From an uncultured Candidatus Saccharibacteria bacterium (GTDB lineage Bacteria > Patescibacteriota > CAZHWT01): DNA of 64,000 nt. The stretch is from contig CAZKPX010000004.1 in assembly GCA_964554805.1 (NCBI GenBank), positions 72,439 through 136,438 on the forward strand, read 5' to 3'. Positions 5,336-50,730 of the stretch are shown here, in pieces (position 1 is the stretch's first letter; every line of letters starts with the position of its first letter). Position numbers and translations under genes: made by a program. Under the pieces are notes generated by a model. The model did no database searches, was not told the DNA's origin, and saw only the letters and a list, made by a program, of their open reading frames with translations.

Positions 5336-6456
5336 GTCGACACCTCCCGATACAGCTTGGCATACTGATCGGCCGTCTGTTGCCAGTCGAACTTTTTGAT
5401 TTGCCGCAGACCGGCTTTGACCAGCTGCTGACGGGATTCCAGGTTACCGGCAAGCAGTGTCATTTGCTGAACCAGTTGTTGGTGATGACCGGTGTCGATA
5501 TACAAGGCCGCTGACCCGCCGATTTCAGGTAAGGCTGTGGTGTTGGTGGTTATGACAGGACAATGACAGGCCATGGCCTGGAGCATGGGCAGGCCAAAAC
5601 CTTCGTAGAGAGAGGGGAATAGTAGGGCTTGGGCTGCGGAAAGCAGCTCGATTAGCTCGGACTTGGCGACGAAGCCGACTAATTTTACTGATGATTCCAG
5701 TTGATGTTGCTGGATCAGTTTTTGAAATGATTGGCTGTCTTTGGCGTTTAAACCGGTAACGACCAGCTGATGCTGCCGGCCGGCGTCAGTATTGATAAAC
5801 TGCTTGAATGCCTCAATAGTGAAGGCTGTTTGCTTGCGGGGATCAATGGCGCCGAGATGGATGAAATAGGGTCGGTCAATACTATATTTCTGCAGAGTTT
5901 GATCCGGGGTGGTGGCTGGTTTAAATTCCTGGCCGACTCCTTCATAGATGACTTTGATCCGGTCAGCTGGAATAGAAAAACCTTCGGCGATATCCTGCTG
6001 GGAGAAGTTGGAGATGGTGGTGACCAGGTTGGCCCGCTTGATGATTAGGCTTGAAATGAGAGCATAATATTTGCGGCCCAGGCGCTGATACCAGGAGACG
6101 GCGGTTGGAATGCGCTGTTTGTCTGACAGGAACATGACGTCGTGGATGGTTAGAATTAGTTTTATTTTGGCAGGCAATAGTAGGGGGGCCGTATTGGTGG
6201 TGGCATGGAAAATATCAATCTTGTCACGTCGCAACAGATAGGGCAGAACGATTTGCTCACTAATGACATAGGAGGCAGGAACCAGTCTGATAACGGCTGA
6301 TGAAGGTAGTTTGACGGCTGACCAGTCGGCCTGTTTGTAGGTGTAGATAACATATTGATGCTGGTCGTCATCAGGCAGATGGGCTATCAGCTGATGGGCA
6401 AATTCGCCCAAACCCCTACCCTTGGCCACCAGGCGGGCATCAATACCTATTTTCAA
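5332..6456 (-). CDS. Glycosyltransferase family 4.
   Basis: EGFGLPMLQAMACHCPVITT motif. A 4-nt overlap with both neighbours. Confidence 0.75.
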   Translation of the reverse strand: MKIGIDARLVAKGRGLGEFAHQLIAHLPDDDQHQYVIYTYKQADWSAVKLPSSAVIRLVPASYVISEQIVLPYLLRRDKIDIFHATTNTAPLLLPAKIKLILTIHDVMFLSDKQRIPTAVSWYQRLGRKYYALISSLIIKRANLVTTISNFSQQDIAEGFSIPADRIKVIYEGVGQEFKPATTPDQTLQKYSIDRPYFIHLGAIDPRKQTAFTIEAFKQFINTDAGRQHQLVVTGLNAKDSQSFQKLIQQHQLESSVKLVGFVAKSELIELLSAAQALLFPSLYEGFGLPMLQAMACHCPVITTNTTALPEIGGSAALYIDTGHHQQLVQQMTLLAGNLESRQQLVKAGLRQIKKFDWQQTADQYAKLYREVST

Positions 6457-7908: not shown

Positions 7909-8973
7909 TTATTTGCGATAAACGGCTACTGTTTGCTGGGCAATGGTGGACCACTTAAATTGAGTGGCCAGCCTGGCAGTTTGCTTGATCAGCTGACTCA
8001 TCAGCTGGCGATCCTCTGCCAACCGGTCAATCGATTCAGCTAACTGGTTGATATGGCCAGGCTGGAAGGTCAGGCAATTCTGCGGCGGCTGGAGATAGTC
8101 AGGCAAATGACCGCCGTCACTGACAATTAAAGGCTTGCTGGCCACAATGGCCTCCAGCAGGGTTGAATTCCTTCTGGTAACCCCTTTAGTGAAAGGCATA
8201 ACCACCACATCGACCGCCTGCAGGTAGTCCAGAATCTGCTGGTCGTCCTGCGGATTTATCCATTTTACCATGTCTGAGATGTTGAGTGATTTGACCTGCT
8301 GGTCCAGAGTTGTATGATGGGGATTTTGTTGGGGATCGAATCTCGTCAGGAAGTAGAGGTTGACCTTTGATTTTAACTGAGCTGCGGCTGATAGAAGATC
8401 TTGCTCTCCTTTGCTGCCGTCCATAAAACCTAAAAAGCCGATGGAGAACTTTGGTAGTCGGGGTGGATTGGGCTTTGCTGAAACCAGCGTTGGGCCCAGG
8501 GTGATATGCTGGATGGCTTTTGTTTTGTGCGGCAGCCAGGCGGCATCCTGGGGGTTGGGCAGGATTATTCTGGAGAAGCCGGTGGCGAGGATGATGTTGC
8601 GGATTTTGCCGAATAGGCTGGCTTCTGACAGTTCATGAAGGGTTAGTGTTGCTTTAAAGCCGTAGCATCGCAGTATCCAAGGCAATAATACTACCGAAAT
8701 GCCGCGTCGATTGAGCTTGGTGGGATATTGGAGGTGGACCATGTCAAATTTGCCTTTGTTGGCACGGGCCCACTTAAGATACTGGAATAGGCCGAATTTG
8801 TTTAATGATGGGTCGAGCTTGAACTGACCGGCTAGGCTTTGGTTATTGGTGTCTAAGGTGACAATGGTTACCTTAGACCCAAGTTGCTGCAGGGCATTGG
8901 CCAGGAAGTAGGCGTGCTTGCCGACACCGCAAGGGTATGGGGGAAGAGTCGCGGAGAAAATGGCGATGTTCAT
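7909..8973 (-). CDS. Glycosyltransferase family 4.
   Basis: GT-B architecture. The N-terminus MNIAIFSATLPPYPCGVGKHAYFLA is typical of GT4. It is the first gene of the minus-strand operon running down to 2698. Confidence 0.6.
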   Translation of the reverse strand: MNIAIFSATLPPYPCGVGKHAYFLANALQQLGSKVTIVTLDTNNQSLAGQFKLDPSLNKFGLFQYLKWARANKGKFDMVHLQYPTKLNRRGISVVLLPWILRCYGFKATLTLHELSEASLFGKIRNIILATGFSRIILPNPQDAAWLPHKTKAIQHITLGPTLVSAKPNPPRLPKFSIGFLGFMDGSKGEQDLLSAAAQLKSKVNLYFLTRFDPQQNPHHTTLDQQVKSLNISDMVKWINPQDDQQILDYLQAVDVVVMPFTKGVTRRNSTLLEAIVASKPLIVSDGGHLPDYLQPPQNCLTFQPGHINQLAESIDRLAEDRQLMSQLIKQTARLATQFKWSTIAQQTVAVYRK

Positions 8974-9008
8974 GTTTGGTGATTATACAGTAATTGGTTG
9001 GGTCTGGT

Positions 9009-9040
9009 GACGAGAACGAGTACGGGAACGAGTACGAGGA
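9009..9040 (+). repeat. Short tandem repeat (AACGAGTACG-type) in the leader of the 8973 operon.
   Basis: gacgagaacgagtacgggaacgagtacgagg. It is related to the GCGACGAGTACGAG tract at 63.7 kb. Confidence 0.5.
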
Positions 9041-9106
9041 TGAAAACAGGAGGCATGAGATGTTGGATGCAAGCTAGGTTGTTGGCTGGCAGATTGAGGG
9101 GGGGGC

Positions 9107-9135
9107 TTGACTTTGGTATAGACATTGTATATACT
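9107..9135 (+). promoter_or_regulatory. Sigma70-like promoter of brnTA: TTGACT, 17 nt, TATACT.
   Basis: ttgact at 9107-9112, a 17-nt spacer, and tatact at 9130-9135, 25 nt upstream of the ATG at 9161. An AGGAG RBS lies at 9141-9145. Confidence 0.5.
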
Positions 9136-9160
9136 TCTCCTAGGAGCTGCCTGATAATGC

Positions 9161-9436
9161 ATGAAAAATATTGTCTGGGATGAGGCCAAGAATGGTTGGC
9201 TAAAAGAACATCGGGGCATTTCGTTTGAAGATGTGGCTACCAGAATTGTTCAGGGCGATGTGTTGGATGTTATTACCCACCCGAATCAAAAAAGATACTT
9301 TAACCAGAGGCAGTTCATCTTGTACTTGCATGATTATGTTTACGCAGTACCTTTTGTTGAAGATGACAATAACCTATTTCTAAAAACAATAATTCCAAGT
9401 CGCAAGGCTAAGAAGAAATATCTCAGCAAGGGCTAG
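9161..9436 (+). CDS. brnT: Type II toxin BrnT (DUF497 family ribonuclease toxin).
   Basis: N-terminal IVWDEAKNGWLKEHRGISFEDV and C-terminal IIPSRKAKKKY match the BrnT family pattern (I.WDE.K...L...RGisFe..; ..iiSaRkA.k.E...Y). Confidence 0.7.
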   Translation: MKNIVWDEAKNGWLKEHRGISFEDVATRIVQGDVLDVITHPNQKRYFNQRQFILYLHDYVYAVPFVEDDNNLFLKTIIPSRKAKKKYLSKG

Positions 9437-9439
9437 TCT

Positions 9440-9766
9440 ATGAAAGATCCACAATTAACTCCCTATGAACAAGATTTACTTGATAGCTTTGAAAAAGGAG
9501 AGTGGGTATCTGTTCCTGATCTAGAAGAAGCCAAGAAGCGCTACGCGGCCTACGCAGCTTATGCTATGCAGAAGCGAGCCAAGACTAAGCCTATCAGTAT
9601 TCGTCTGTCCGAAGATGTGCTGGATGGATTGAAAGAGCAGGCTGGCCGGGAAGGTATCCCCTATCAGACGCTGATTAGCTCTATCTTGCATAAATACCTG
9701 GTCAAGGAAAGACAGGCTGAGTATGGTCAGGTGAACGACAAAGAAGAATCAGCGGACAAGGGATAG
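9440..9766 (+). CDS. brnA: BrnA antitoxin (ribbon-helix-helix / CopG-like).
   Basis: The IRLSEDVLDGLKEQAGREGIPYQTLISSILHKYL segment matches the BrnA_antitoxin signature. The gene starts 3 nt after brnT. Confidence 0.7.
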   Translation: MKDPQLTPYEQDLLDSFEKGEWVSVPDLEEAKKRYAAYAAYAMQKRAKTKPISIRLSEDVLDGLKEQAGREGIPYQTLISSILHKYLVKERQAEYGQVNDKEESADKG

Positions 9767-9881
9767 ACTGACCCGCTAAAGATCGGTCAGCAAGACTCTT
9801 TATCACTTACTCGCTTAGACTGATAATTCTTAGCACTCTCTGAGTATATTATTTACTCTTTGTCTGAGATACCTGCTACTG

Positions 9882-11072
9882 CTAGATGTTAGCACTGTCA
9901 GGCTTCGGCTTGGCTTGAAGATGTAGATCGGAACGTAATTTTTGAACAATCAGCTGCCAGGAGTAATGCTGCTCAACCAGAGCGCGGTTATGTTTTTCTA
10001 ATTGCTGACGGTCTGACAGATTCAGTATCCTAAGAACCTGTTCGGCGAAAGCGGCAGGCTGGTCAGCGATGACCACTCCGTCGGATTGATGCAAACCTTC
10101 GGCTCCGATGGTAGTTGAGACAATGACCTTTTCCATGGCCATGGCTTCTAGAATCTTTAATCTGGTACCGGCACCGGATCGCAAGGGAACAATGGCCATG
10201 GTTGATTTGGCCACCCATTCCCGGACATCATCGACTTGGCCAGTGACGGTGATGGATGGGTCTTTGGCCATGGCCTGAATCGATTTGGTGGGGTTGCGGC
10301 CGACTATGTATAACTGGCATTGTGGCCTGTTTTTGTGAATGATTGGCCAGATCTGATCGACAAACCACTCCATAGCATCGACATTGGGGCGATAATCCAT
10401 CAGGCCGCAGAAAACTAAAGACTCCTGCGATGGTGTAGATTGCTTTGGTTTTTTAAAATAGTCGGTGTCCACACCATTGGAGGCTACAACGATCTTGGCT
10501 GATGGACAGAGCTTCTTCCAGTCGGCAGCCTCTTCTTCTGAGACCGCGACTATGGTATCGATATATTTGTCAGCACTGGCTTCGATCTTCTTTAGGAAGT
10601 AGGCGTATAGGTGTTTGTAGGCTTTTAAGGCTGGATTGGTAGCGTTGCTGGCTATTTTGTGGTGTAGTTGATGTTCTATGTTGTGGGCATCAAGGATGAA
10701 TTTGATGTCGGGGAATTTTTGAGCAGCCTGGTAAATCATGGGCAGGGTGTAGGAAAACTCGACAAAGACCAGATCTGGCTTGGAGTTTTCAAGTACTTTG
10801 ACAAAGTCGTTGGACAGTTTCTGATTGTGATAGATGGAGAACCATGGCATTAATTTCTGCCAGATTAATAGGCGAGGAGCTTCAATAGATCTGACCTGAT
10901 CAACTCCAGATTCAGTTTTTATAGTTGAATCTGAGTAGGGATCTGCCTGGCCTAGATATACAACAAAGACCTGATGAGATTTGCTGAACTGCTTGAGTAA
11001 GTTAAAAACCCTCAATCTGCCACCGGAGTTGGCGGGGTATGGTTTATCTGGAGTTAAGAAGAGGATTTTCAT
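9882..11072 (-). CDS. Glycosyltransferase family 4.
   Basis: GT-B with the GT4 C-terminal motif (ILEAMAMEKVIVSTTIGAEG). It is transcribed divergently from the GT2 gene. Confidence 0.7.
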   Translation of the reverse strand: MKILFLTPDKPYPANSGGRLRVFNLLKQFSKSHQVFVVYLGQADPYSDSTIKTESGVDQVRSIEAPRLLIWQKLMPWFSIYHNQKLSNDFVKVLENSKPDLVFVEFSYTLPMIYQAAQKFPDIKFILDAHNIEHQLHHKIASNATNPALKAYKHLYAYFLKKIEASADKYIDTIVAVSEEEAADWKKLCPSAKIVVASNGVDTDYFKKPKQSTPSQESLVFCGLMDYRPNVDAMEWFVDQIWPIIHKNRPQCQLYIVGRNPTKSIQAMAKDPSITVTGQVDDVREWVAKSTMAIVPLRSGAGTRLKILEAMAMEKVIVSTTIGAEGLHQSDGVVIADQPAAFAEQVLRILNLSDRQQLEKHNRALVEQHYSWQLIVQKLRSDLHLQAKPKPDSANI

Positions 11073-12217: not shown

Positions 12218-13294
12218 TTGCCGAAGCTCTTATCACACCATCCCACAATAATTCCCATGAAAGATCGTTTAACTCTGTGGCTGTTTTTTCTTAATTCTGT
12301 CCGATGCACCCTACTAGCTGGCTTTGGGCAGAAAGTTATTCTTCTTGGTGCGCCTTTCCATTGGAATCTGGGCGACCATGCTCAGACCTATTGCACTGTT
12401 GAGTGGATGAAGGATAATTACCCGAATAAGAAGCTGTTGGTTTACGATACCCGCTCTGCAATTAAGTTTAACTATTTGTTGATGCGAGCCTTGAAGTTTT
12501 TTGCGAATGATAAAGACATTTATATATTGCATAGTGGCTATCACTTGACTGACCTTTATCCACTTGAATTAGATCTGCAGCTAAGAACTATCTCAGATTT
12601 CCCGGACTCAAAAATAATTGTTATGCCCCAAACTATCAACTTGACCACAAAGGAGGTGGAGTCGAGGGTGATAGATTGCTTTAACGAGGCCAAGGACTTG
12701 ACGCTGTTGTGCCGGGACGAGACCTCGTATGAGCTAGCCAAGAAGTTTTTCAGCTGCAAACTACTCCTTTTCCCTGATATTGTTACCAGCATGATCGGAC
12801 AGGAAATGCCAAGAGCCACAACACGGACTTCAATCAATCTTTGCTTACGCAATGACAAAGAGTCGTTATATCGCCAATCTGGCGAGGATCTTCGCATGGT
12901 GAATGAATTATCCAAGATTGATAAAGTGGTGGTTACTGATACCGAGGCAGCTGAAAATCCTTTTTATGTCAGACTAAATCTGGCCAAAGTTTTACAGAAA
13001 TCCTGGTTTGATTTTAGCAGCTATAAAGTAACCATAACCGACCGTTATCATGGCACTATCTTCTCTTTGATTGCCGGCACCCCGGTTGTTGTTATTGCTT
13101 CAACAGACCATAAGTTAATCTCAGGAGTAAAATGGTTTCCCAAGAAGTACTTTAAGGATTATGTTTTTTATGCAAAAGATGCCGATGAGGCAATCTTGTT
13201 AGTCGGCAATATTTATCAAAATAACTACACAAACCGACTTGAACCATACTTTAAGAAGAACTACTATAGCTCTCTAAAAAGTAAGCTTATATAA
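12218..13294 (+). CDS. Polysaccharide pyruvyl-transferase-like protein (CsaB/WcaK-like).
   Basis: An N-terminal glycine-rich loop with NLGD (GAPFHWNLGDHAQ), as in the PS_pyruv_trans family. It sits upstream of an F420H2-DH-beta-like gene, a recurrent pairing. Confidence 0.45.
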   Translation: MPKLLSHHPTIIPMKDRLTLWLFFLNSVRCTLLAGFGQKVILLGAPFHWNLGDHAQTYCTVEWMKDNYPNKKLLVYDTRSAIKFNYLLMRALKFFANDKDIYILHSGYHLTDLYPLELDLQLRTISDFPDSKIIVMPQTINLTTKEVESRVIDCFNEAKDLTLLCRDETSYELAKKFFSCKLLLFPDIVTSMIGQEMPRATTRTSINLCLRNDKESLYRQSGEDLRMVNELSKIDKVVVTDTEAAENPFYVRLNLAKVLQKSWFDFSSYKVTITDRYHGTIFSLIAGTPVVVIASTDHKLISGVKWFPKKYFKDYVFYAKDADEAILLVGNIYQNNYTNRLEPYFKKNYYSSLKSKLI

Positions 13295-13311
13295 TACTTA
13301 AGGATAATTCT

Positions 13312-14730
13312 TTGAAAGACTACGCTGATATTTTTAAAACTGAAATTAGAGAAGGTCTCAGTGTGAATAGTGGTTCGTTCGCCGTAGTTGATGAAAACCT
13401 TCAAATGGTTTTGGATGAATATGGCCAATATAAGGCCGTTATTATTGATCCGAGTAAAACTGCTTCAACGCATGACAGAGAGCTTTCTTTAGTCAGTGCA
13501 ATGTCTGACATAAGCCCTGACGAGGATAGTATTGCAAGAGAGCTTTACTCTACTACGCCAAGGATCAAGCACTCTCAGGCAGTCGGCTATTATTTGGATT
13601 TGTACGCAGGCCACGTTACAGAAGGGAACTTCCGAGAAATAGCTAGTTCCGGAGGCTTTGCCACATGGACTTTGTGTAAGCTCCTCGAAGGAGGCTTAAT
13701 TGACGGTGTCATTCATGTTAAAGAGTCAAATGATGACGATGGCACTCTATTTAAGTATGCCATTTCTAGGACCAAAGAAGATATAATCAACGGATCTAAG
13801 TCAAGATACTATCCCGCAGAGTTTTCTAAGACTATTAAGGAAATTAAAAGGACCAAAGGTTCATACGCTATTGTTGGCATCCCCAGTTTTATCATGGAGA
13901 TTAGACTACTAGCCAAAGTTGATCCCGAGGTTAACCGTGCTATTAAATACACCTTAGGATTAATTTGTGGGCACCAGAAAAGCACTAAATATGCCGAGGC
14001 TCTTGCTTGGCAGCATGGTATTCAACCAGGAGACTTGCAAGCTATTGACTTCAGAAAGAAGACTAATGAGGCTGTTTCTTATAAGTATCTGACCGAGTTC
14101 ACTGGGCAAATTAATGGTAAAAAAACTACATTCACTAAGAAGCAAGATGATTTATTCGCTAGTGACTGGGCTCATGGCTTTTTTAAGACTGCTTTTTCGG
14201 ACTTTACCGACGATGCATTGAATGAGACTGCTGATCTGGCGCTTGGAGACGCCTGGCTGGATGAGTACTACTCTGATAGCGGAGGGAATAATGTATTAAT
14301 TGTTCGACATCCCGATATAGCGCAAATAATTAAAGATGGTATTAAGCATAGCCATATCAAAGTCAATGCAATATCTCCAGCAACCGTACTGCGTTCCCAG
14401 CAAGGGCTTATTCACCACACCCAAGATGAAATCTCATATCGGTTAAGTAAGATTAACAAATCTAAGGGCTGGAAGCCTATTAAGCCACGCCACTCCCCCA
14501 ATCGCATCCCATTTCTCCGCCGAAGAGTTCAGGATCTTAGGCGAGAAATGGCAGTGCAGAGCCATATAGCATACCAAGAGGCAGTTGCTTTAAACAATTG
14601 GCAATATTTTGAAAAGAAGATGTCTCCCTATATCAAGCAGTATAAATTTTGGTATAAAGTGATTGAATATAATAACCTTGGATTAGAAGGATTTGCTAAA
14701 AGAGTTCTCAAGAAATTACGAAAGAAATAA
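13312..14730 (+). CDS. Coenzyme-F420-hydrogenase/dehydrogenase-beta-subunit-like protein, a cysteine-less variant.
   Basis: An SSGG motif (ASSGGFATWTLCKLLEGGLIDGVIHV), as in FrhB_FdhB_N, and a C-terminal LALGDAW block. There are no CxxC iron-sulfur motifs. Confidence 0.45.
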   Translation: MKDYADIFKTEIREGLSVNSGSFAVVDENLQMVLDEYGQYKAVIIDPSKTASTHDRELSLVSAMSDISPDEDSIARELYSTTPRIKHSQAVGYYLDLYAGHVTEGNFREIASSGGFATWTLCKLLEGGLIDGVIHVKESNDDDGTLFKYAISRTKEDIINGSKSRYYPAEFSKTIKEIKRTKGSYAIVGIPSFIMEIRLLAKVDPEVNRAIKYTLGLICGHQKSTKYAEALAWQHGIQPGDLQAIDFRKKTNEAVSYKYLTEFTGQINGKKTTFTKKQDDLFASDWAHGFFKTAFSDFTDDALNETADLALGDAWLDEYYSDSGGNNVLIVRHPDIAQIIKDGIKHSHIKVNAISPATVLRSQQGLIHHTQDEISYRLSKINKSKGWKPIKPRHSPNRIPFLRRRVQDLRREMAVQSHIAYQEAVALNNWQYFEKKMSPYIKQYKFWYKVIEYNNLGLEGFAKRVLKKLRKK

Positions 14731-17307: not shown

Positions 17308-18930
17308 TTACATGCCTGCGGCAGGCTGATGGTACAAGCGGTCAGTAATATCTACTAGATCGAATAGCTTTTTAGAATCTTTGAAGCCATAGACCTTTGT
17401 CTCCAGCGGCGACATGGGGATGTTGAAATATTGATCAAAAACGGTGCGGAAAGCATTAATGGATGACATATCATCTGATAGCCGAGCATAGTCCTGGTCG
17501 GGGAAATAGTAGGCGGTTAAGACGTTGGCCCGCTCGTGCAAGGCTTGATCTGAAGTGCTGACCCAGTTGTTACTCTTTTTGACTTGACTGTACTTTGAAG
17601 AACTGGCTCCCTCATCGGCTACCATCACTATAATGGCATTACCTTGGGTAGAGGCTTTTATGTACGAGATGATTTCCTGGGCTGTCCTGGTGGCACATTT
17701 AAGATGTTCGAGATACCCTTGATCATTACTCAGTCTGTCCAACTGAGTCGGGTCATATTGACAATCCTGGTTGAATATATAAGGCCCATGTGGCAATAGG
17801 ATGTGAGCCATAACGAACTTAGGGCTGGGCATATCTACGACAGTTTTGTAGGTGCTTAATTGATACTGGGTGTAGACCTTGTGGGCAATAAGGCTGTCGG
17901 CGGTGTTATCAGCAGTAAACAGGCTGACGATCGGCATGGCCATGGTGGCGGAAATTATTTCACGGACATAAGGATCCTTCAACCAGAACATTGGCGCATA
18001 CTGAAAAACCCGGTTATTACCTCCCTCTTGAGCTGTGGGCCAATACCAAGATGCTAATGAATAGTTTTTGTATCCTAGATCATGAAAGGTCTGTTGAGTA
18101 GCATTGTTTTTAAAAAGCGGAATAATATCAGACCCCTCAGTCGGCTGGCGGCCTTGCCAATCCTGGCTGTCATGATACTGCATATTAAGAGTGGCAGACA
18201 TGGAAAATGAGGTTTTAAGATAGTTCGACAGCGCATTTTCCGCTACAAAAAAGTTTTCGCTCCTTAACCAACTATAAAACTGACTGTTGTCGTATCCGTA
18301 GCTATCGAGCAATACATTGTTGGCAGCATAGCGATCAAACACCAGATAGTAGACATCTGGTTTGGATGCGGTGTAGTCGGGCAGATCGGTGGAGGCTAAG
18401 ACATTGCTGGCTGATGACAGGCTGGTATCTGCAACCTGCTCAACTCCCAGTTTGCCGCGCTCCGCCAAGCCTACCTGCCAAACTACCATGACTACTAATA
18501 TAATTGATACAACATTCATTATGGGTGTCAATATTCGACCAGAGTGAGAGGATCTTTTCCAATACCAGAATCCAGCCATCAGCAAAAGACTAACTACAGG
18601 AAAGACTGCTTTATCCGGGCCAATTATAAAATTGCCAACTCTGGCAAGCTCGTCAGGCAATGGATTTACCAAGGACCCATAGAGAGAAAACACAATAACA
18701 AATAAGCCCAGAGCTGCGGCAGCTTTGGGCCAGGACTTGTATATAAAATTGGAGATAAAGAAGAGCAGGCAGGTGACGATTATAACAAGTAGTAGTGGAA
18801 TATATACTACATCGAGGGTCAATTCCTGGACGTTGTGACTGTAGATAAAAATGACGGGATAAATGGCCAGCAATAACGGGTAAAATGGTTCACTACCGAC
18901 TTTGCTGAAAAATTGCCTAGCTTTATTCAT
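17308..18930 (-). CDS. Membrane-anchored alkaline-phosphatase-superfamily protein (LtaS/sulfatase/phosphotransferase-like), paralog 1.
   Basis: Five N-terminal TM helices, then a roughly 400-aa ectodomain. Conserved blocks are shared with the next gene (YYLVFDRYA, LLPHGPY, AYYFPDQ-Y, N-FRTVFDQYFN). Confidence 0.4.
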   Translation of the reverse strand: MNKARQFFSKVGSEPFYPLLLAIYPVIFIYSHNVQELTLDVVYIPLLLVIIVTCLLFFISNFIYKSWPKAAAALGLFVIVFSLYGSLVNPLPDELARVGNFIIGPDKAVFPVVSLLLMAGFWYWKRSSHSGRILTPIMNVVSIILVVMVVWQVGLAERGKLGVEQVADTSLSSASNVLASTDLPDYTASKPDVYYLVFDRYAANNVLLDSYGYDNSQFYSWLRSENFFVAENALSNYLKTSFSMSATLNMQYHDSQDWQGRQPTEGSDIIPLFKNNATQQTFHDLGYKNYSLASWYWPTAQEGGNNRVFQYAPMFWLKDPYVREIISATMAMPIVSLFTADNTADSLIAHKVYTQYQLSTYKTVVDMPSPKFVMAHILLPHGPYIFNQDCQYDPTQLDRLSNDQGYLEHLKCATRTAQEIISYIKASTQGNAIIVMVADEGASSSKYSQVKKSNNWVSTSDQALHERANVLTAYYFPDQDYARLSDDMSSINAFRTVFDQYFNIPMSPLETKVYGFKDSKKLFDLVDITDRLYHQPAAGM

Positions 18931-19001
18931 TGGCCTTATCTTTCAGGTATGCTACTAGAGTAACGTCTCAATTTAAAACGGTCAAGCCTCATAGATCAGC
19001 C

Positions 19002-20600
19002 CTATGGCGCGAGATAAAAATCGAACAAATGATCCTTGTCGGGCCAGAGGTAGGTTTGGTCTTCTAGGTTGGGGAGGTCGTAGTTGAAGTATTGGCGGAA
19101 GACGGTGCGGAAGGAGTTGACGGGGGTGATGGTGGGGTAGAGTTGGCTGTAGTTCTGGTCGGGGAAGTAGTAGGCGTTGAGGATTTGAGTGCGTTCTTGG
19201 ATAGCAGTGTCGGAGGCACCATCAAATTTCCAGTGGTGGCCGGTGGGGCTGATCATGGCTTCGGGGCCCTCATCGCTCTGGAGAATGATAATGGGTGGTT
19301 GGGTTGAGTTGGCTAGAATAGTGTCGATGGCCTGCATGGCCCTACTGTTGGCGCATTTGACCTGTTCGATGTAATTGGCCGGGCTGATTTCCCAGCGCTG
19401 CAGAGGTTGCTGGAGTAGATTGCAATCAGCATCATAGACGTAGGGGTCATGAGGCATAAGCAGGTGGGTCATGACAAATTTTTGCCCTGTTTGCTTGGTT
19501 GCTTGCAGGAGTTGCTGCTGGCCGAAGTCTGCCCAGCGATAATGCTGATCAAAGCCTAGCCCGAGTGGGTAATTAGTGGTTAATCCAGCTAATTCTGGAT
19601 AGTAGGATGTCTCGAGGAGTTGCCTGGTGAAGCTACTGGTGGTTATAAAATCTGACCAGTTGGCCATGATGTTGGTGTCGGCTACCTCGATGTTGCTGGC
19701 TAGCTCGTAATAATTGCCAACGTGGAAATAGGTGTAGCCAAGCGACTTGAAGATTTGGCCGGCCTTGTGATTTCTCATTAAGACTGAAGCGGTATCGGTG
19801 TCAGAGACACCGTCGGCCTGAGTATCGACCAGGCTTTGCAGATAATCTAGATTGAGGGTTGAGGAAAGTGAAAACAGGGTTTTGGGGTAGTTGGTGTTGG
19901 AATCAGTGGCTAGATAGAACTGCTTTTGAGCCAGATAATCGATTAGCTGTTGGTTATCATAGTCATAGTATTCAGCTTGAGTTTTGGGTGAGGCGTAACG
20001 ATCGAGGACGATGTAATAGATATCGGGTTGACTTGCAGCGACAAGCGATGAGTGATGAGCGACAGGGAGGACTTGGGTGGCCTGAAGTGCTTGCTGTCTG
20101 GCCTCGGAGCTGGCAAATAAGCCTGGAACAATTTGGATGAGAGGGCCGACAAGAAGAATAATGCCGACGAGGCTAATTAGTTTAATAAAACGTATCGATG
20201 GCCAGGTAGTCTGCCGACCGGCAGATTTCATAGCCATGACGACCAGCACTATTGCCACAAGTATATACAATAGCCAGACAGCGACTTTGGCTTGATCGGC
20301 TTCCAGCCACTGACCAAAAATCACAGTCAGGCTATTGAAGCTAAAGAATGTGACAACCAGCGTCAGGCTGATTAGAGCGGCAAAGGTTGGTTTTTTGGTT
20401 AAGAATGCCAAACCTATTTGGATAACTACGACGACAAAGGTTGTAAAAAGGAGCGGTTCAATCACCTGGTTTATAGTGGTGCCGTGAATATTGGTGGCGA
20501 ACAAGCTGAGAATTGCGAACCAGCTGAAGAGAATGGCTGGGGCTAGGCTTAGGAGCGACGAGCGACGAGCGACGAGCGACGAGGTGAATCGGTTGAGCAT
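19002..20600 (-). CDS. Membrane-anchored alkaline-phosphatase-superfamily protein, paralog 2. It carries a heptamer SSR in codons 7-17.
   Basis: Same architecture as 17308-18930 (IYYIVLDRYA, LLMPHDPY, AYYFPDQNY, NSFRTVFRQYFN). The N-terminal SSLVARRSSLL is encoded by (GAGCGAC)x4. Confidence 0.4.
   Translation of the reverse strand: MLNRFTSSLVARRSSLLSLAPAILFSWFAILSLFATNIHGTTINQVIEPLLFTTFVVVVIQIGLAFLTKKPTFAALISLTLVVTFFSFNSLTVIFGQWLEADQAKVAVWLLYILVAIVLVVMAMKSAGRQTTWPSIRFIKLISLVGIILLVGPLIQIVPGLFASSEARQQALQATQVLPVAHHSSLVAASQPDIYYIVLDRYASPKTQAEYYDYDNQQLIDYLAQKQFYLATDSNTNYPKTLFSLSSTLNLDYLQSLVDTQADGVSDTDTASVLMRNHKAGQIFKSLGYTYFHVGNYYELASNIEVADTNIMANWSDFITTSSFTRQLLETSYYPELAGLTTNYPLGLGFDQHYRWADFGQQQLLQATKQTGQKFVMTHLLMPHDPYVYDADCNLLQQPLQRWEISPANYIEQVKCANSRAMQAIDTILANSTQPPIIILQSDEGPEAMISPTGHHWKFDGASDTAIQERTQILNAYYFPDQNYSQLYPTITPVNSFRTVFRQYFNYDLPNLEDQTYLWPDKDHLFDFYLAP
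20553..20583 (+). repeat. Heptamer microsatellite (GAGCGAC)x4 inside the N-terminal coding region of the 19002-20600 gene.
   Basis: gagcgacgagcgacgagcgacgagcgacgag. A 7-nt unit in an ORF means a gain or loss of one unit shifts the frame. Confidence 0.8.
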
Positions 20601-20603
20601 AAC

Positions 20604-22046
20604 TTACTTCTTTTCTAGTAGGTATAGGATCCGGTGGCTATCTTTGATTGGGGTGGCTTTGGTAATTTTGAAATATTGACCAAAAGCAGCCTCAAATCCC
20701 TCCTTGGTGTAGTCAGTGAAAATATCCTGCCGGGTAGCTAACAGAATCTGGACTTGGGAATCCTGTTTGGGGATGAATTCAACGATGGCTCCCTTATGCG
20801 ACAACTGGTGGAACAACAGGGCAATCTTGGCTAAGGGGATGTTGAGAGGGATAGCCAGGTGATGGACGACCGCCAGTCCCATAATGGCATCGGCTTGAAT
20901 ACGATCCAGAATAGCCCGACGCTCGGTATTGTGCCAGCCAATGCCTGGGCTGGGGTTGGCAATGTCTGACACCAAAGGCAGGATACTGCCTTTGGTGGAG
21001 CGACTAGCGACGGGCGACGAGCGACGAGCTTCTGATTTGAGGTATTGGTAGAGGCTGTCGACTGCTAAGGGGTCGATGTCGAGGGCGATGGTTTGGATGC
21101 CTTGATCTGCCGCAACCATGCTAAATAAGCCGGTATTGGCACCGATGTCTGTGGCTGATTTTGCTTTGAGTTGCTTGAGATAGTCCCCCACTAATTGCTG
21201 CTTGTGTTGGAGGGCTTGGTCGACATAGTTGTTGTTATTGATGTAATAGCTGGCCCACTCGGTGTTTTGGCCTTTGGCTTTGAGCTTTTTGACTGCTGAC
21301 TCTAGACTATCCAACATGCCCAGCAATGATTGCAGACTGACTTGACCAACAGATGTAGATTGAGAAGCGGCTTGGAGATTTTTTGAGGCATCGGAAGCAT
21401 GACTGACTTGGTTCTTACCGTGAAGATGGATATGGATTAGCAGGCCGGGTCGGAGACGAGAAGCTGGGGGCAGGAGACGGGAGGCTAGGTCTAGAGGGAT
21501 GCCGTCAATATTCGTCTGGAGTAATTGCTGCAGGCGGAGATCGGTATGGGCCATTAAGGCTAGCGGGGCCAGGAAATGTTGGCAGAATTGTTTGTAGGCA
21601 ACCCAGGGCTTTGGCTGGTAGGCTTCAAAAGACAAGGTGTCAATTAAAACTGGCTGATTGGCCACAAATTGGATATTGTAAGCCGTTGCATCTTTGAGAC
21701 TCATGCCATGTTTGAGGGCTGTTTTTTGAAGATGAAGGGTTAGGAGCGCCGCATCTTGCAGCTGGCTAAATGACCATTCATACGGATAGGATATGACCGG
21801 AATATGCTCAGGTTTAATAATTTTATAGGCCTGCTGAAAGGGGTGGTTTGTTAACTTGACCTCTTGATGAGCTACCATAGCTTGCTGGTCAACAAGAGTC
21901 TGATATAGGCCGGAGCTGTGTAGCAGGTCATAGTTTTTCTGGTATGAATCAGAAACTGCCCGATAGATGGTGTCGTCTTGGTAAAAGACAGTGCCGCTGG
22001 GATCGCGGAAGGATGAAGATTCAAGCTTGGTAGTGTCTTTAGGCAT
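20604..22046 (-). CDS. Two-domain protein with a C-terminal class I SAM-dependent methyltransferase. It carries a GCGACGR heptamer tract in the coding sequence.
   Basis: DIGANTGLFSMVAADQG..ALDIDPLAVD is a SAM-binding fold. EARRSSPVASRSTKG is encoded by the gcgactagcgacgggcgacgagcgacgag tract at 21000-21028. Confidence 0.5.
   Translation of the reverse strand: MPKDTTKLESSSFRDPSGTVFYQDDTIYRAVSDSYQKNYDLLHSSGLYQTLVDQQAMVAHQEVKLTNHPFQQAYKIIKPEHIPVISYPYEWSFSQLQDAALLTLHLQKTALKHGMSLKDATAYNIQFVANQPVLIDTLSFEAYQPKPWVAYKQFCQHFLAPLALMAHTDLRLQQLLQTNIDGIPLDLASRLLPPASRLRPGLLIHIHLHGKNQVSHASDASKNLQAASQSTSVGQVSLQSLLGMLDSLESAVKKLKAKGQNTEWASYYINNNNYVDQALQHKQQLVGDYLKQLKAKSATDIGANTGLFSMVAADQGIQTIALDIDPLAVDSLYQYLKSEARRSSPVASRSTKGSILPLVSDIANPSPGIGWHNTERRAILDRIQADAIMGLAVVHHLAIPLNIPLAKIALLFHQLSHKGAIVEFIPKQDSQVQILLATRQDIFTDYTKEGFEAAFGQYFKITKATPIKDSHRILYLLEKK
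21000..21028 (+). repeat. Heptamer microsatellite (GCGACKR)x4 inside the methyltransferase-domain gene.
   Basis: gcgactagcgacgggcgacgagcgacgag. Confidence 0.7.
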
Positions 22047-31635: not shown

Positions 31636-31690
31636 ATAGTCTATTATATCATACTATGGGCTACTTGTCAAGATTGTGGGATGCGGATGG

Positions 31691-35430: not shown

Positions 35431-36052
35431 CGCGTTCAATATCAAACATGGGCACTGCGCCGGCCCGGAGGATGCGAGGGCGATCTCCTTGAGTAAGATC
35501 AATAACTGTTGAGCCGACTTCTCCACCAGCTTCACCTGCCACTACTCCACCAGTATGACTAATAAAGGCGCCATCGATAGCCTCAAACGTTGACGGGGCA
35601 AGTTCGCCACTAAAACAGGCCGACGACTGAATTAGCGGGCCGGTATGGCGAATCAGTTCCATGGCAATAGGATGATTGGGAATCCGGACACTAATAGTCG
35701 GCTCAGGCCATAAACAATGGAGTGGCTTGTTGGGCCAAGGCAGGACTAGGCTGACACTGCCGGGCCAGAAAGACTTTATTAGTTTGACCATGGCTCGGTG
35801 CTGTTGAGGATGAAGTGCATCAAAATCAATGCCTAGCTCTTCTAAATCGCTGAGCGTTGCAATAAGAATACCTAAGGGCTCTTCGACTGGGCGTTGTTTG
35901 GCTTGGTAGAGTGCGCCGACAGCTTTGGCATTTTTCCAACGAGCTCCGACTCCCCAGACCGTGTCTGTGGGGAAGATGACGGCTCCACCAGCTAGAAGGC
36001 GGGCCTTGCCTTCAACGATTGATAGTAATTTTTCGCGTTTGTTGATCAACAT
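35420..36052 (-). CDS. tsaC: L-threonylcarbamoyladenylate synthase (YrdC/Sua5 family).
   Basis: LLAGGAVIFPTDTVWGVGA is the classic YrdC motif. About 210 aa from M(LINKRE). Confidence 0.7.
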   Translation of the reverse strand: MLINKREKLLSIVEGKARLLAGGAVIFPTDTVWGVGARWKNAKAVGALYQAKQRPVEEPLGILIATLSDLEELGIDFDALHPQQHRAMVKLIKSFWPGSVSLVLPWPNKPLHCLWPEPTISVRIPNHPIAMELIRHTGPLIQSSACFSGELAPSTFEAIDGAFISHTGGVVAGEAGGEVGSTVIDLTQGDRPRILRAGAVPMFDIERVIA

Positions 36053-36845
36053 AGTCGAGATAAAGATGCATTGTTTGGTCTGGTAATAGTTCAGGGGCTC
36101 GGTCGGGCCATTCAATAATGATTATACCATCTGCGCGTTCAATTACCTCGGTTATGCCGAGTTGCTCTACTTCGCGACTGTCCGATAAACGATACCAATC
36201 GTAGTGATAGAGTGTCTGACCACTTGGTAGTGGATATTGCTTTGAAATGGTGTAGGTAGGGCTAGAAATCTTTTTAGGTATACCAAACGCCTTGGCCAGA
36301 TGAGAAACTAATGTGGTTTTGCCTGCCCCAAGATCGCCATGCAGAGCCAGCACTTGTCCAGGTTGTAGAGTTTGAGCAAGTCGGGTTGTGAAATACGGCA
36401 ATTGACTCAGTGTAACAAAAACCTCACCGCCCTGCCAGATTTGCTCGTATTGAGGAGGTTTGGTAACCTGGCGCCACCATTCCAACCATCCGACAACTGC
36501 CAGTCCTAGTCCTATGCCCAGGCTATTAATGGCAACGTCAGTAACTACTCCGTGCCGGGTGGGCACCATAGACTGGTGGACTTCATCGAAGATGGCGTAG
36601 AGCAGGCTTATTAGGAACGCCCTGATGGCTACGGGTCGACTCAAGGTTAAGCGGGTTGTTTGTTGAAGCCCCAAAAATACCGTTACACACAGGACCATAT
36701 AGACCAAAACATGAGAGATCTTACGTAGGAAAAAATCTGCTGACCCATAGGTAAAAGCCAGATTGGGGATGGATGACAGAAGAAAGATTACGGATGCCCA
36801 GACCAAGGCTGGCAGCCAATACAGGAGACGGATAACGACGGACAT
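36012..36845 (-). CDS. tsaE: Fusion protein: an N-terminal VanZ-like membrane domain and a C-terminal TsaE (YjeE) P-loop ATPase.
   Basis: The VanZ signature FDEVHQSMVPTRHGVVTDVAINSLGIGLG lies in a 4-TM region. The TsaE motifs LALHGDLGAGKTT...YHYDWYRL follow. Confidence 0.6.
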   Translation of the reverse strand: MSVVIRLLYWLPALVWASVIFLLSSIPNLAFTYGSADFFLRKISHVLVYMVLCVTVFLGLQQTTRLTLSRPVAIRAFLISLLYAIFDEVHQSMVPTRHGVVTDVAINSLGIGLGLAVVGWLEWWRQVTKPPQYEQIWQGGEVFVTLSQLPYFTTRLAQTLQPGQVLALHGDLGAGKTTLVSHLAKAFGIPKKISSPTYTISKQYPLPSGQTLYHYDWYRLSDSREVEQLGITEVIERADGIIIIEWPDRAPELLPDQTMHLYLDYVDQQTRKITINR

Positions 36846-49386: not shown

Positions 49387-50730
49387 ATGCCTGAATCATC
49401 CGCCACACAATTTAAACTAACTGATGTTGTTTATCAGCAGCAAGATGCAACCGTCTTTAATGGGGCCGTCATTCCTTCCATTGCCGGCAGTGCTGAAGCA
49501 TTTATTATTTTCTATCTGTCTCGAGAAGACGAGCAGAATGGCTATGGGACCGTTATTCAATTGGATAATGAGACTAAGCAGGCTGCAATTTTTGCAGATC
49601 TTAATCCAGAATATAGCTATTTATTTTTCAAAGATGAACAAGGCGCACTCCAAACTTTGTTGTGGTGCATCGAATTTGCTACTCGGACTGCTGACGGGCT
49701 ATTTGTAACTCAAGCAAAAGTTTACGGTCGAGGAATCAGTGAGCAGGAGCTCAAAAATCTAGCTCAACCTGCTGCTCAGCAGCCGTATGAATTACGCGAG
49801 CCGGTATCCCCGATTGCTCAGGCTCCAACGACTGCTCCTCCACCCCAGATGCCAGCTCAACAACCTGCGGTATCGCCTCGCCCGCAACCAACACCGACAC
49901 CTGCCGCGCCTCCTCTGCAAACGCCTTCTACGCCGCATTCTTCGCCACAACCTCCTCAATCAGTTGCACCGATGGCTGAACCAGCGCGCCAAACCTCAAC
50001 TCCTCAGCCGTTACCTTCAACTCAAGCGCTACCAATGGAGTCGGCGGCGGCTTGGTCAGAACCTGTCGTGAGCCAGCAACCTAAGCCCCAATCATCAGCT
50101 AGCCAAACGGCCAATGCCGGAGAGTTAAATCTACCTCATCTTCCAGAACTACCGTCTTTGCCAGCTATGCCTGCTTCTAATTGGTCGCCCGCCGCAACAA
50201 GCACTACGCCAGCCCCAACAATAGATCCATCGTCGCAGAATTCACGGCTCGAATTGCCGCCTCTGCCAGCCCTGCCGGATTTACCACAGGTTCCACCAGT
50301 CCAACCAGCTATGCCTCAGCAGCCTAGCCAGCCCTCAGCATCCGCGCCTGCAGCTCAACCTGCGGCTGAATCTAGCGCACCAGTCAATCAATCTCCTCGC
50401 CAGCCAGTTGGTCGTCCTCCAAAACCGTTGATCCAAGATCGCTTATGGATGATATCGGCCGAAGATTTTACATGGCTCAAGACTATCAGCCGTGATCCTA
50501 TTGATGCTAATAAAGAATTGCTTCGCCAGAAGATAATTGGCCAAATTCGACTTAACCAACCAAACTTAATTGAGGACTGGCAATTCTTGGGACAGTTCGA
50601 GCAAGCCTTCGCAGCTATATGCATGACTTATGATTTGGTGCCTGGTTTACGCCATGATCTTCTAAAATCACTCCTAAATGGCCGGGTTGTTGATGGTGTA
50701 GTTAAGCAACATCAACACCGCGGTCGCTAG
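49387..50730 (+). CDS. Proline-rich hypothetical protein with N- and C-terminal globular regions.
   Basis: 447 aa. The central P/Q/S/A-rich low-complexity region contains LPxLPxxP repeats. The C-terminus is an approximately 100-aa folded domain. Confidence 0.4.
   Translation: MPESSATQFKLTDVVYQQQDATVFNGAVIPSIAGSAEAFIIFYLSREDEQNGYGTVIQLDNETKQAAIFADLNPEYSYLFFKDEQGALQTLLWCIEFATRTADGLFVTQAKVYGRGISEQELKNLAQPAAQQPYELREPVSPIAQAPTTAPPPQMPAQQPAVSPRPQPTPTPAAPPLQTPSTPHSSPQPPQSVAPMAEPARQTSTPQPLPSTQALPMESAAAWSEPVVSQQPKPQSSASQTANAGELNLPHLPELPSLPAMPASNWSPAATSTTPAPTIDPSSQNSRLELPPLPALPDLPQVPPVQPAMPQQPSQPSASAPAAQPAAESSAPVNQSPRQPVGRPPKPLIQDRLWMISAEDFTWLKTISRDPIDANKELLRQKIIGQIRLNQPNLIEDWQFLGQFEQAFAAICMTYDLVPGLRHDLLKSLLNGRVVDGVVKQHQHRGR

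Follow-up and report, generated by a model that had tools for sequence, protein, structure and literature searches.

The subject of this study is a two-gene cassette on the plus strand of a 64,000-nucleotide (nt) stretch of DNA from an uncultured Candidatus Saccharibacteria bacterium (contig CAZKPX010000004.1, positions 72,439 to 136,438), which is referred to in its whole length as the window. In this cassette a gene for a small BrnT-like toxin is followed by a gene for an antitoxin. The cassette had been described in an earlier note on the window as a BrnT/BrnA toxin-antitoxin module with its own promoter, inserted in a polysaccharide locus. Its features, in window coordinates, are as follows.

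9107-9135, plus strand: sigma-70-type promoter match TTGACT-17-TATACT, 10/12 consensus match
9116-9146, no strand: candidate operator region, with GTATA-N9-TATAC (9116-9134) and the palindromes GTATATAC and CTCCTAGGAG
9142-9146, plus strand: Shine-Dalgarno AGGAG of the toxin gene, read from the sequence, 14 nt 5' of the ATG
9161-9436, plus strand: toxin gene, 91 amino acids (aa), ATG start; DUF497/COG2929 (BrnT-like) RelE-fold protein of the FLKTIIPSRKATKxY-motif clade
9428-9432, plus strand: Shine-Dalgarno-like AAGGG with a presumed role for the antitoxin gene, within the toxin 3' end and 7 nt 5' of the ATG at 9440
9440-9766, plus strand: antitoxin gene, 108 aa, ATG start
Antitoxin domains: residues 8-48, N-terminal helices (presumed toxin-binding); about 49-95, ribbon-helix-helix; 96-108, disordered tail

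The toxin gene ended with the stop codon TAG at 9434-9436 and the antitoxin gene started with the ATG at 9440, which confirmed the gap of 3 nt given in the earlier note. The ribosome-binding site AGGAG claimed there was also present, though its spacing from the toxin ATG was long compared to the usual 5-9 nt. Translation of the antitoxin probably relies on AAGGG, a Shine-Dalgarno-like sequence of its own.

Protein families, folds and conserved pairing

In the comparison with the Pfam profiles BrnT_toxin and BrnA_antitoxin that the earlier note had proposed, significant matches were obtained for both proteins, above the curated cut-off for the antitoxin and below it for the toxin. The match of the toxin to BrnT_toxin (PF04365) covered positions 1-76 of the 77-position profile, at 29.8 bits and an E-value of 7.8e-7. 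The same family was matched by all 36 clade members examined (E <=1e-3, best 3e-9), most of the toxin relatives carried a precomputed PF04365 label, and some were named "BrnT family toxin" or "DUF497 family protein" by their source. Among 5.8 billion clusters the nearest non-identical relative was 64% identical to the toxin, and the next 120, from many phyla, were 49-60% identical. In the tight clade formed by these relatives, 18 residues were invariant and 12 near-invariant, and the window toxin had all of them. The invariant polar residues included K10, R18, S21, E23, N42, Q49, K75 and R81, and the clade was marked by an HPN motif and the C-terminal block FLKTIIPSRKATKxY.

The AlphaFold2 (AF2) model of the toxin, built on the clade alignment, reached a mean predicted local distance difference test (pLDDT) score of 93.9. 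Its elements (E, strand; H, helix) were E3-5, H8-18, H22-30, E36-39, E50-56, E59-67, E71-74 and H81-88, that is, the N-terminal helices on a four-stranded antiparallel sheet of the RelE-like fold. In a Foldseek search of the PDB with this model, the best match was 7vd7_A (probability 1.00, template modelling score 0.61), followed by YafQ, YoeB, RelE, HigB and ParE. At the sequence level a phmmer search of the PDB with the toxin gave no match and profiles were required; the clade profile then retrieved 7vd7_A with an E-value of 0.0017, and an hhalign probability of 91% was obtained. A BrnT-like query that matched Brucella BrnT (3U97) at E 3.5e-24 also reached the 7VD7 toxin at E 1.4e-5. Because of the PF04365 match, the clade, the confident model and the 7VD7 matches in both profile and structure, the toxin is, by sequence profile and predicted fold, a DUF497/COG2929 protein of RelE fold that belongs to a distinct clade and is not a close copy of BrnT.

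The antitoxin passed the cut-offs of both BrnA_antitoxin (PF14384, DUF4415; 33.6 bits, cut-off 26.1) and CopG_antitoxin (PF12441; 33.3 bits, cut-off 28). Among its relatives PF12441 was matched in 29/29 and PF14384 in 6/29, and the NCBIfam BrnA equivalog model scored the antitoxin far below its cut-off (23.1 bits, cut-off 60). On these profile scores it is better described as a protein of CopG_antitoxin (PF12441/COG5304) type, a relative of BrnA, than as a BrnA equivalog. The C-terminal 42 residues of the antitoxin clade profile aligned with the entire CopG repressor (E 0.006), and a marginal CopG match (E 0.38) was obtained when the PDB was searched with the antitoxin by phmmer. Its AF2 model contained two N-terminal helices, an extended segment, two further helices and a disordered tail, and the C-terminal part was matched by Foldseek to the DNA-binding domain of the CopA_SO antitoxin (6iya), CopG and Arc, all ribbon-helix-helix proteins. 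Compared to its relatives, the antitoxin had three extra residues inserted ahead of the ribbon strand, and its tail was slightly longer; both differences fall in variable regions. It carried the residues invariant or near-invariant in its clade.

The genomic pairing of the two families was determined by scanning 185,579 species genomes with the most conserved peptide of the toxin clade, which gave at least 580 stretches, of which 80 loci were kept. In 77/77 complete loci from other genomes, distributed over many phyla, an antitoxin homologue was found on the same strand, 3-53 nt 3' of the toxin homologue; the remaining three of the 80 loci ended directly after the toxin gene. Plasmid-borne members of the toxin clade also occurred, in 35 records of Piscirickettsia, 3 of Candidatus and one of Calothrix. 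A toxin-antitoxin role has been predicted for pairs of COG2929 with COG5304 or COG3514 (Makarova et al. 2009, PMC2701414), and COG2929-COG5304 (DUF497-DUF3680) pairs have been catalogued in Synechocystis, for example sll1651/sll1652 (PMC4963859). The window has the same gene order, toxin and then ribbon-helix-helix antitoxin (COG3514/COG5304).

Promoter, candidate operator and proposed working

The near-consensus promoter of the earlier note was found in front of the toxin gene. Its -10 hexamer ended 25 nt 5' of the toxin ATG, which places the predicted transcription start near 9142 and gives a predicted leader of about 19 nt. The spacer upstream of the toxin gene (8974-9160) measured 187 bp, and by our own arithmetic a 10/12 match on the right strand would occur in it with a chance of about 1%. 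Sites with a 17-nt spacer and a match of 10/12 or better numbered 14 in the window as a whole vs 6.75 +/- 2.25 in shuffled sequences. Two of these 14 were perfect TTGACA-17-TATAAT promoters (31643-31671 and 63626-63654, both on the minus strand), so promoters of this type are used by the organism. A simple scan of 1.5 kb around the cassette gave 4 promoter-like sites vs 2.4 expected and was uninformative alone. Among 79 related toxin-antitoxin loci, 29% of the upstream 120-mers reached at least 10/12, compared to 1.8% of random 120-mers from the same loci, and the claim of a promoter belonging to the module was strengthened by this enrichment.

The candidate operator lies across the same region. 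Within it, the 8-bp palindrome GTATATAC (9127-9134) overlapped the -10 hexamer. A further palindrome, CTCCTAGGAG (9137-9146), is perfect over 10 bp and has AGGAG as its right half; it overlapped both the Shine-Dalgarno sequence and the predicted transcription start. By chance, the 187-bp spacer would be expected to contain about 0.7 palindromes of 8 bp. An operator role is proposed for 9116-9146 because ribbon-helix-helix antitoxins autoregulate, as in BrnTA, which binds its own promoter (PMC5086665).

The upstream regions of the related loci were also compared. Nine acidobacterial loci of the clade (L005, L012, L013, L015, L016, L019, L020, L022 and L023) shared the inverted repeat (A)TGTGTGCC-N4-6-GGCACACA(T). 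This repeat, GTGTGCC-N4-6-GGCACAC, lay about 40 nt 5' of the toxin start codon (position 6001 in those loci) and is likely a conserved operator; it was absent from the window, where the palindromes differ. In seven other loci (L003, L004, L009, L014, L017, L021 and L024) the best promoter match ended 5-7 nt 5' of the toxin start codon, which implies leaderless mRNAs and fits the DUF497 operons of Synechocystis (PMC4963859). Judging from these upstream regions, the module would typically carry its own promoter and a palindromic element.

Given the gene pair, the family and fold assignments of both products, the conserved pairing and order and the promoter match, all of which are results of this analysis, we consider with a probability of about 80% that the cassette is an intact, self-contained type II toxin-antitoxin operon composed of a DUF497/COG2929 (BrnT-like) toxin and a COG5304/PF12441 ribbon-helix-helix antitoxin. 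The identification as a BrnT/BrnA-type cassette with its own promoter was thereby upheld, on the family matches of both proteins, the RelE-like toxin model, the ribbon-helix-helix antitoxin, the 77/77 pairing and the promoter enrichment upstream of clade members. The lack of significant profile matches, named in the earlier note as a ground for refutation, did not occur.

In this type II operon, the promoter at 9107-9135 would drive a bicistronic mRNA that carries the toxin and then the antitoxin behind the short leader. The 91-aa RelE-fold toxin would act as a small endoribonuclease, and free toxin would cleave RNA and arrest translation. The N-terminal helices of the 108-aa antitoxin may wrap and neutralise the toxin, and the antitoxin dimer, alone or toxin-bound, would use its ribbon-helix-helix domain to bind the palindromes that overlap the -10 hexamer and the predicted start site, and would thereby repress the operon. 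If the labile antitoxin were not replenished, the toxin would be freed. BrnT has been described as a ribonuclease (RNase) and BrnTA as an autoregulator of its own operon; the RNase activity, neutralisation, autoregulation and antitoxin lability proposed here are inferred from BrnTA and from type II systems generally (PMC5086665, PMC11980606).

Several results weighed against this assignment. The score of the toxin was lower than the curated PF04365 cut-off of 34.5 bits, and no NCBIfam model was matched by it. Aligned with B. abortus BrnT, the clade profile covered just 25 N-terminal residues with a probability of 12%. The RNase activity of BrnT is reported to require Asp6, Glu7, Lys9, Arg41 and Glu78 (PMC5086665), and these five residues were just partly retained: the window toxin keeps D7, E8 and K10, the Asp6 and Glu7 positions were variable across the clade (D in 31 and N in 57 members at the first, various residues at the second), Arg41 was without a secure equivalent, with R50 nearby, and Glu78 aligned with Tyr87, a Tyr in 112/117 clade members. 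No experimentally tested member of this clade was found in the searchable literature. With regard to expression, the toxin Shine-Dalgarno sequence, distant from its ATG, coincided with the predicted transcription start, and no intrinsic terminator was found 3' of the operon in a pattern scan of 9767-9881. The RNA fold of 9755-9900 was no better than that of shuffled sequences (z -0.46), and no non-coding RNAs were detected in the whole window by Rfam at gathering thresholds or by ARAGORN. Due to the lack of a terminator, transcripts of the operon may run antisense into the 3' end of the glycosyltransferase family 4 (GT4) gene at 9882-11072. The missing RNase residues weaken the claim that the toxin works exactly like BrnT and do not lower its membership in DUF497.

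The same residues led to a further proposal, which we hold to be doubtful as a whole. According to it, the toxin clade (HPN...FLKTIIPSRKATKxY) would be a mechanistically distinct DUF497 branch, in which Glu78 is replaced by a C-terminal Tyr, Asp6/Glu7 are relaxed and cleavage is RelE/YafQ-like and possibly ribosome-dependent, and the cassette would in addition mark a recombination junction in a modular glycan locus. Ribosome dependence has not been established for any DUF497 toxin (PMC11980606). The clade-wide Tyr at the position of BrnT Glu78, in an abundant and apparently unstudied DUF497 branch, is slightly unusual and makes this branch a target for that question. In other respects the cassette adds a chromosomal copy to a toxin-antitoxin family that is very widespread and has already been catalogued, and its significance hardly goes beyond annotation.

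Polysaccharide neighbourhood and alternative explanations

The description of the surroundings had to be corrected. The cassette had been placed between divergent operons; both genes adjoining it encode GT4 enzymes and lie on the minus strand, at 7909-8973 and 9882-11072, so that the cassette diverges from one, converges on the other and interrupts a series of same-strand genes, and the true divergence point was found at 11072/11128, where a plus-strand GT2 gene follows. It was indeed the only plus-strand coding unit of its surroundings, over the 8.4 kb between 2698 and 11127 and not over the 10 kb stated before. The tract of heptamers reported at 9009-9040 proved to be a repeat of another period:

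9010-9038, no strand: period-6/12 repeat ACGAGA/ACGAGT, 4.8 copies, in the shared spacer; could not be shown to belong to the module

The cassette lies within a Wzx/Wzy-type polysaccharide cluster, the products of which comprise four GT4 enzymes, GT2 enzymes, methyltransferases, flippases, a priming sugar transferase, a Wzy-like polymerase and a pyruvyl transferase together with its FrhB-like partner. The surrounding stretch of chromosome encodes SecA, RF2, PyrG, Cmk, FtsEX, TsaE, SerRS, a class II synthetase and GreA. Since the cassette interrupts the same-strand glycosyltransferase run, the downstream block GT4-Wzy-GT4-GT4 must either have a promoter of its own or be reached by transcription that reads through the cassette in antisense, which could affect the expression of the polysaccharide genes.

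Some further observations were made in the window. In the spacer shared with the toxin gene, an uncalled open reading frame (ORF) of 51 aa was found on the minus strand at 8970-9125 (MSIPKSSPPLNLPANNLACIQHLMPPVFILVLVPVLVLVTRPNQLLYNHQT), the stop codon of which overlaps the ATG of the GT4 gene at 7909-8973 (ATGA). Its ATG is 11 nt after an AGGAG that results from reading the palindrome CTCCTAGGAG on the minus strand, and the repeat at 9010-9038 would encode LVLVPVLVLV in it; the ORF could be a small membrane or leader peptide, or chance. In the public annotation, the minus-strand GT4 gene at 9882-11072 starts at 10850 and encodes 322 aa; since alignments with relatives begin at residue 1 of the 396-aa ORF, the longer reading is probably correct. 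The pyruvyl transferase gene and then the FrhB/FdhB-like gene occupy 12218-14730 (plus strand), which suggests that the polymer made by this locus is pyruvylated. The TsaE gene at 36012-36845 (minus strand) is fused to an N-terminal VanZ-like domain. The GreA ORF at 63076-63732 (218 aa) contains the perfect promoter at 63626-63654 (minus strand) and its Pfam match begins at residue 70, so GreA probably starts further downstream. No Pfam match was obtained for a 2022-aa ORF at 41438-47506 (minus strand; E <=1e-3), nor for three consecutive large ORFs of the polysaccharide cluster (540, 532 and 480 aa; 17308-22046, minus strand) or for the large ORFs at 1032-2672 and 49387-50730 (plus strand).

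The position of the cassette raised the possibility, advanced in the earlier note, that it is kept because it stabilises the accessory polysaccharide locus against deletion, or that it marks the junction of a horizontally acquired segment. Toxin-antitoxin modules are known to stabilise plasmids and genomic islands (PMC4963859). The block GT4-Wzy-GT4-GT4, from 8973 down to 4184, was syntenic, at 41-46% identity, with the nearest related loci, which hold the relatives of 41-44% identity. These loci lack a toxin-antitoxin pair, and their GT4_354 homologue has a 4-nt overlap with an upstream GT4 that is a different, non-orthologous one, so that synteny ends exactly at the cassette. This gives weak support to a location of the cassette at a module junction and is no proof of insertion.

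Other results argued against both halves of this explanation. The GC content at third codon positions (GC3) of the two genes was 0.45 and 0.47, within the range of the window (0.30-0.60), and GC, GC3 and skew around the cassette were not distinctive. Direct and inverted repeats in 8900-9950 were limited to short matches at chance level, and neither a target-site duplication nor terminal inverted repeats were among them. The collections contained no close relatives of this genome. For the GT4 proteins on the two sides of the cassette, the closest relatives shared 44% and 35% identity, and comparators at this distance (<=44% identity) are too remote to define an insertion event. Elsewhere the cassette was found only on two other contigs (runs SRR16798008 and SRR16798009), which were 100% identical to the window and belong to the same strain. 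The housekeeping proteins of the window were singletons at 90% clustering of about 15 billion proteins, which together with the identical-only contigs points to a poorly sampled lineage. Homologues of 15 polysaccharide genes within 6 kb were found in 0/80 toxin-antitoxin loci, the cassette was found in 0/66 loci related to either flanking GT4, and a literature search on toxin-antitoxin modules in polysaccharide clusters returned nothing pertinent. Stabilisation of the locus, or the marking of an acquired segment, is therefore unlikely; the boundary of the earlier note retained some weak support from the end of synteny, and recent acquisition was not indicated by the GC3 values or by flanking repeats. 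The presence of the cassette in the polysaccharide cluster is most likely due to the chance landing of a mobile, selfish module, with no functional partnership.

Both glycan loci and defence genes belong to the variable parts of genomes that are exposed to phages. In an explanation based on this, the cassette would be a phage-defence (abortive infection) module, in which infection frees the toxin and aborts the cell and the placement in a glycan locus, a phage-receptor determinant, is meaningful. Some toxin-antitoxin modules of the RelE/ParE superfamily do act in defence (PMC11980606), but neither protein matched a PADLOC-DB 2.0 defence model (E <=0.01), the toxin had no match in the phage records of the phage collection, a glycan-locus context did not recur in the clade, and no further defence genes were recognised adjoining the cassette, which makes this role quite improbable. 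It is highly improbable that the toxin has lost its catalytic activity or been repurposed and that the pair is now only a small transcription-factor complex, since the Tyr at the Glu78 position, the unclear Arg41 equivalent and the sub-threshold Pfam score are offset by the retention of Tyr throughout the clade and of the 18 invariant residues, many of them polar, which speak for a conserved active surface and not for decay, and by a strict antitoxin pairing that a live toxin would enforce.

Comparison with known systems

The type II operon proposed here was compared with characterized and predicted systems. It resembles BrnT/BrnA of Brucella abortus (PDB 3U97; PF04365, PF14384; Heaton et al. 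2012, summarised in PMC5086665 and PMC11980606) in the toxin-first order and in the small DUF497 RelE-like alpha/beta toxin. The N-terminal W-D-E-x-K motif is common to both (W6, D7, E8 and K10 here; W5, D6, E7 and K9 in BrnT), as is the C-terminal ribbon-helix-helix of the antitoxin, and by analogy with BrnTA autoregulation from its own promoter is expected. Differently, the toxin was about 22% identical to BrnT in a MAFFT alignment, with a confident profile alignment at the BrnT N-terminus only; Glu78 of BrnT is replaced by a clade-conserved Tyr, and the clade has its own invariant motifs, HPN and KTIIPSRK. BrnA belongs to PF14384/COG3514, whereas the antitoxin clade here belongs to PF12441/COG5304.

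The best match in both profile and structure was the 94-aa toxin of a Salmonella Typhimurium toxin-antitoxin complex (7VD7 chain A), which has IISARKA in place of the IIPSRKA found here. The two were about 18-28% identical, and 7VD7 retains the canonical C-terminal Glu (RKER) where the clade has Tyr. A literature search for 7VD7 found no paper describing it.

The overall fold was shared with RelE, YafQ and YoeB (Foldseek ranks 2-34), as was a conserved aromatic or basic C-terminal residue, which is Tyr87 in the window toxin. RelE of E. coli uses the C-terminal Tyr87, and YafQ uses His87. Compared to these ribosome-dependent mRNA interferases, the toxin gave no family match at the sequence level, and in their operons the antitoxin gene comes first.

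The same architecture and family pairing were found in the COG2929-COG5304 pairs (PMC2701414, PMC4963859), which are bioinformatic predictions. Such pairs are widespread and also occur on plasmids, and their mRNAs have a short leader or none. Unlike the leaderless Synechocystis pair, the cassette of the window has a predicted leader of about 19 nt with a Shine-Dalgarno sequence.

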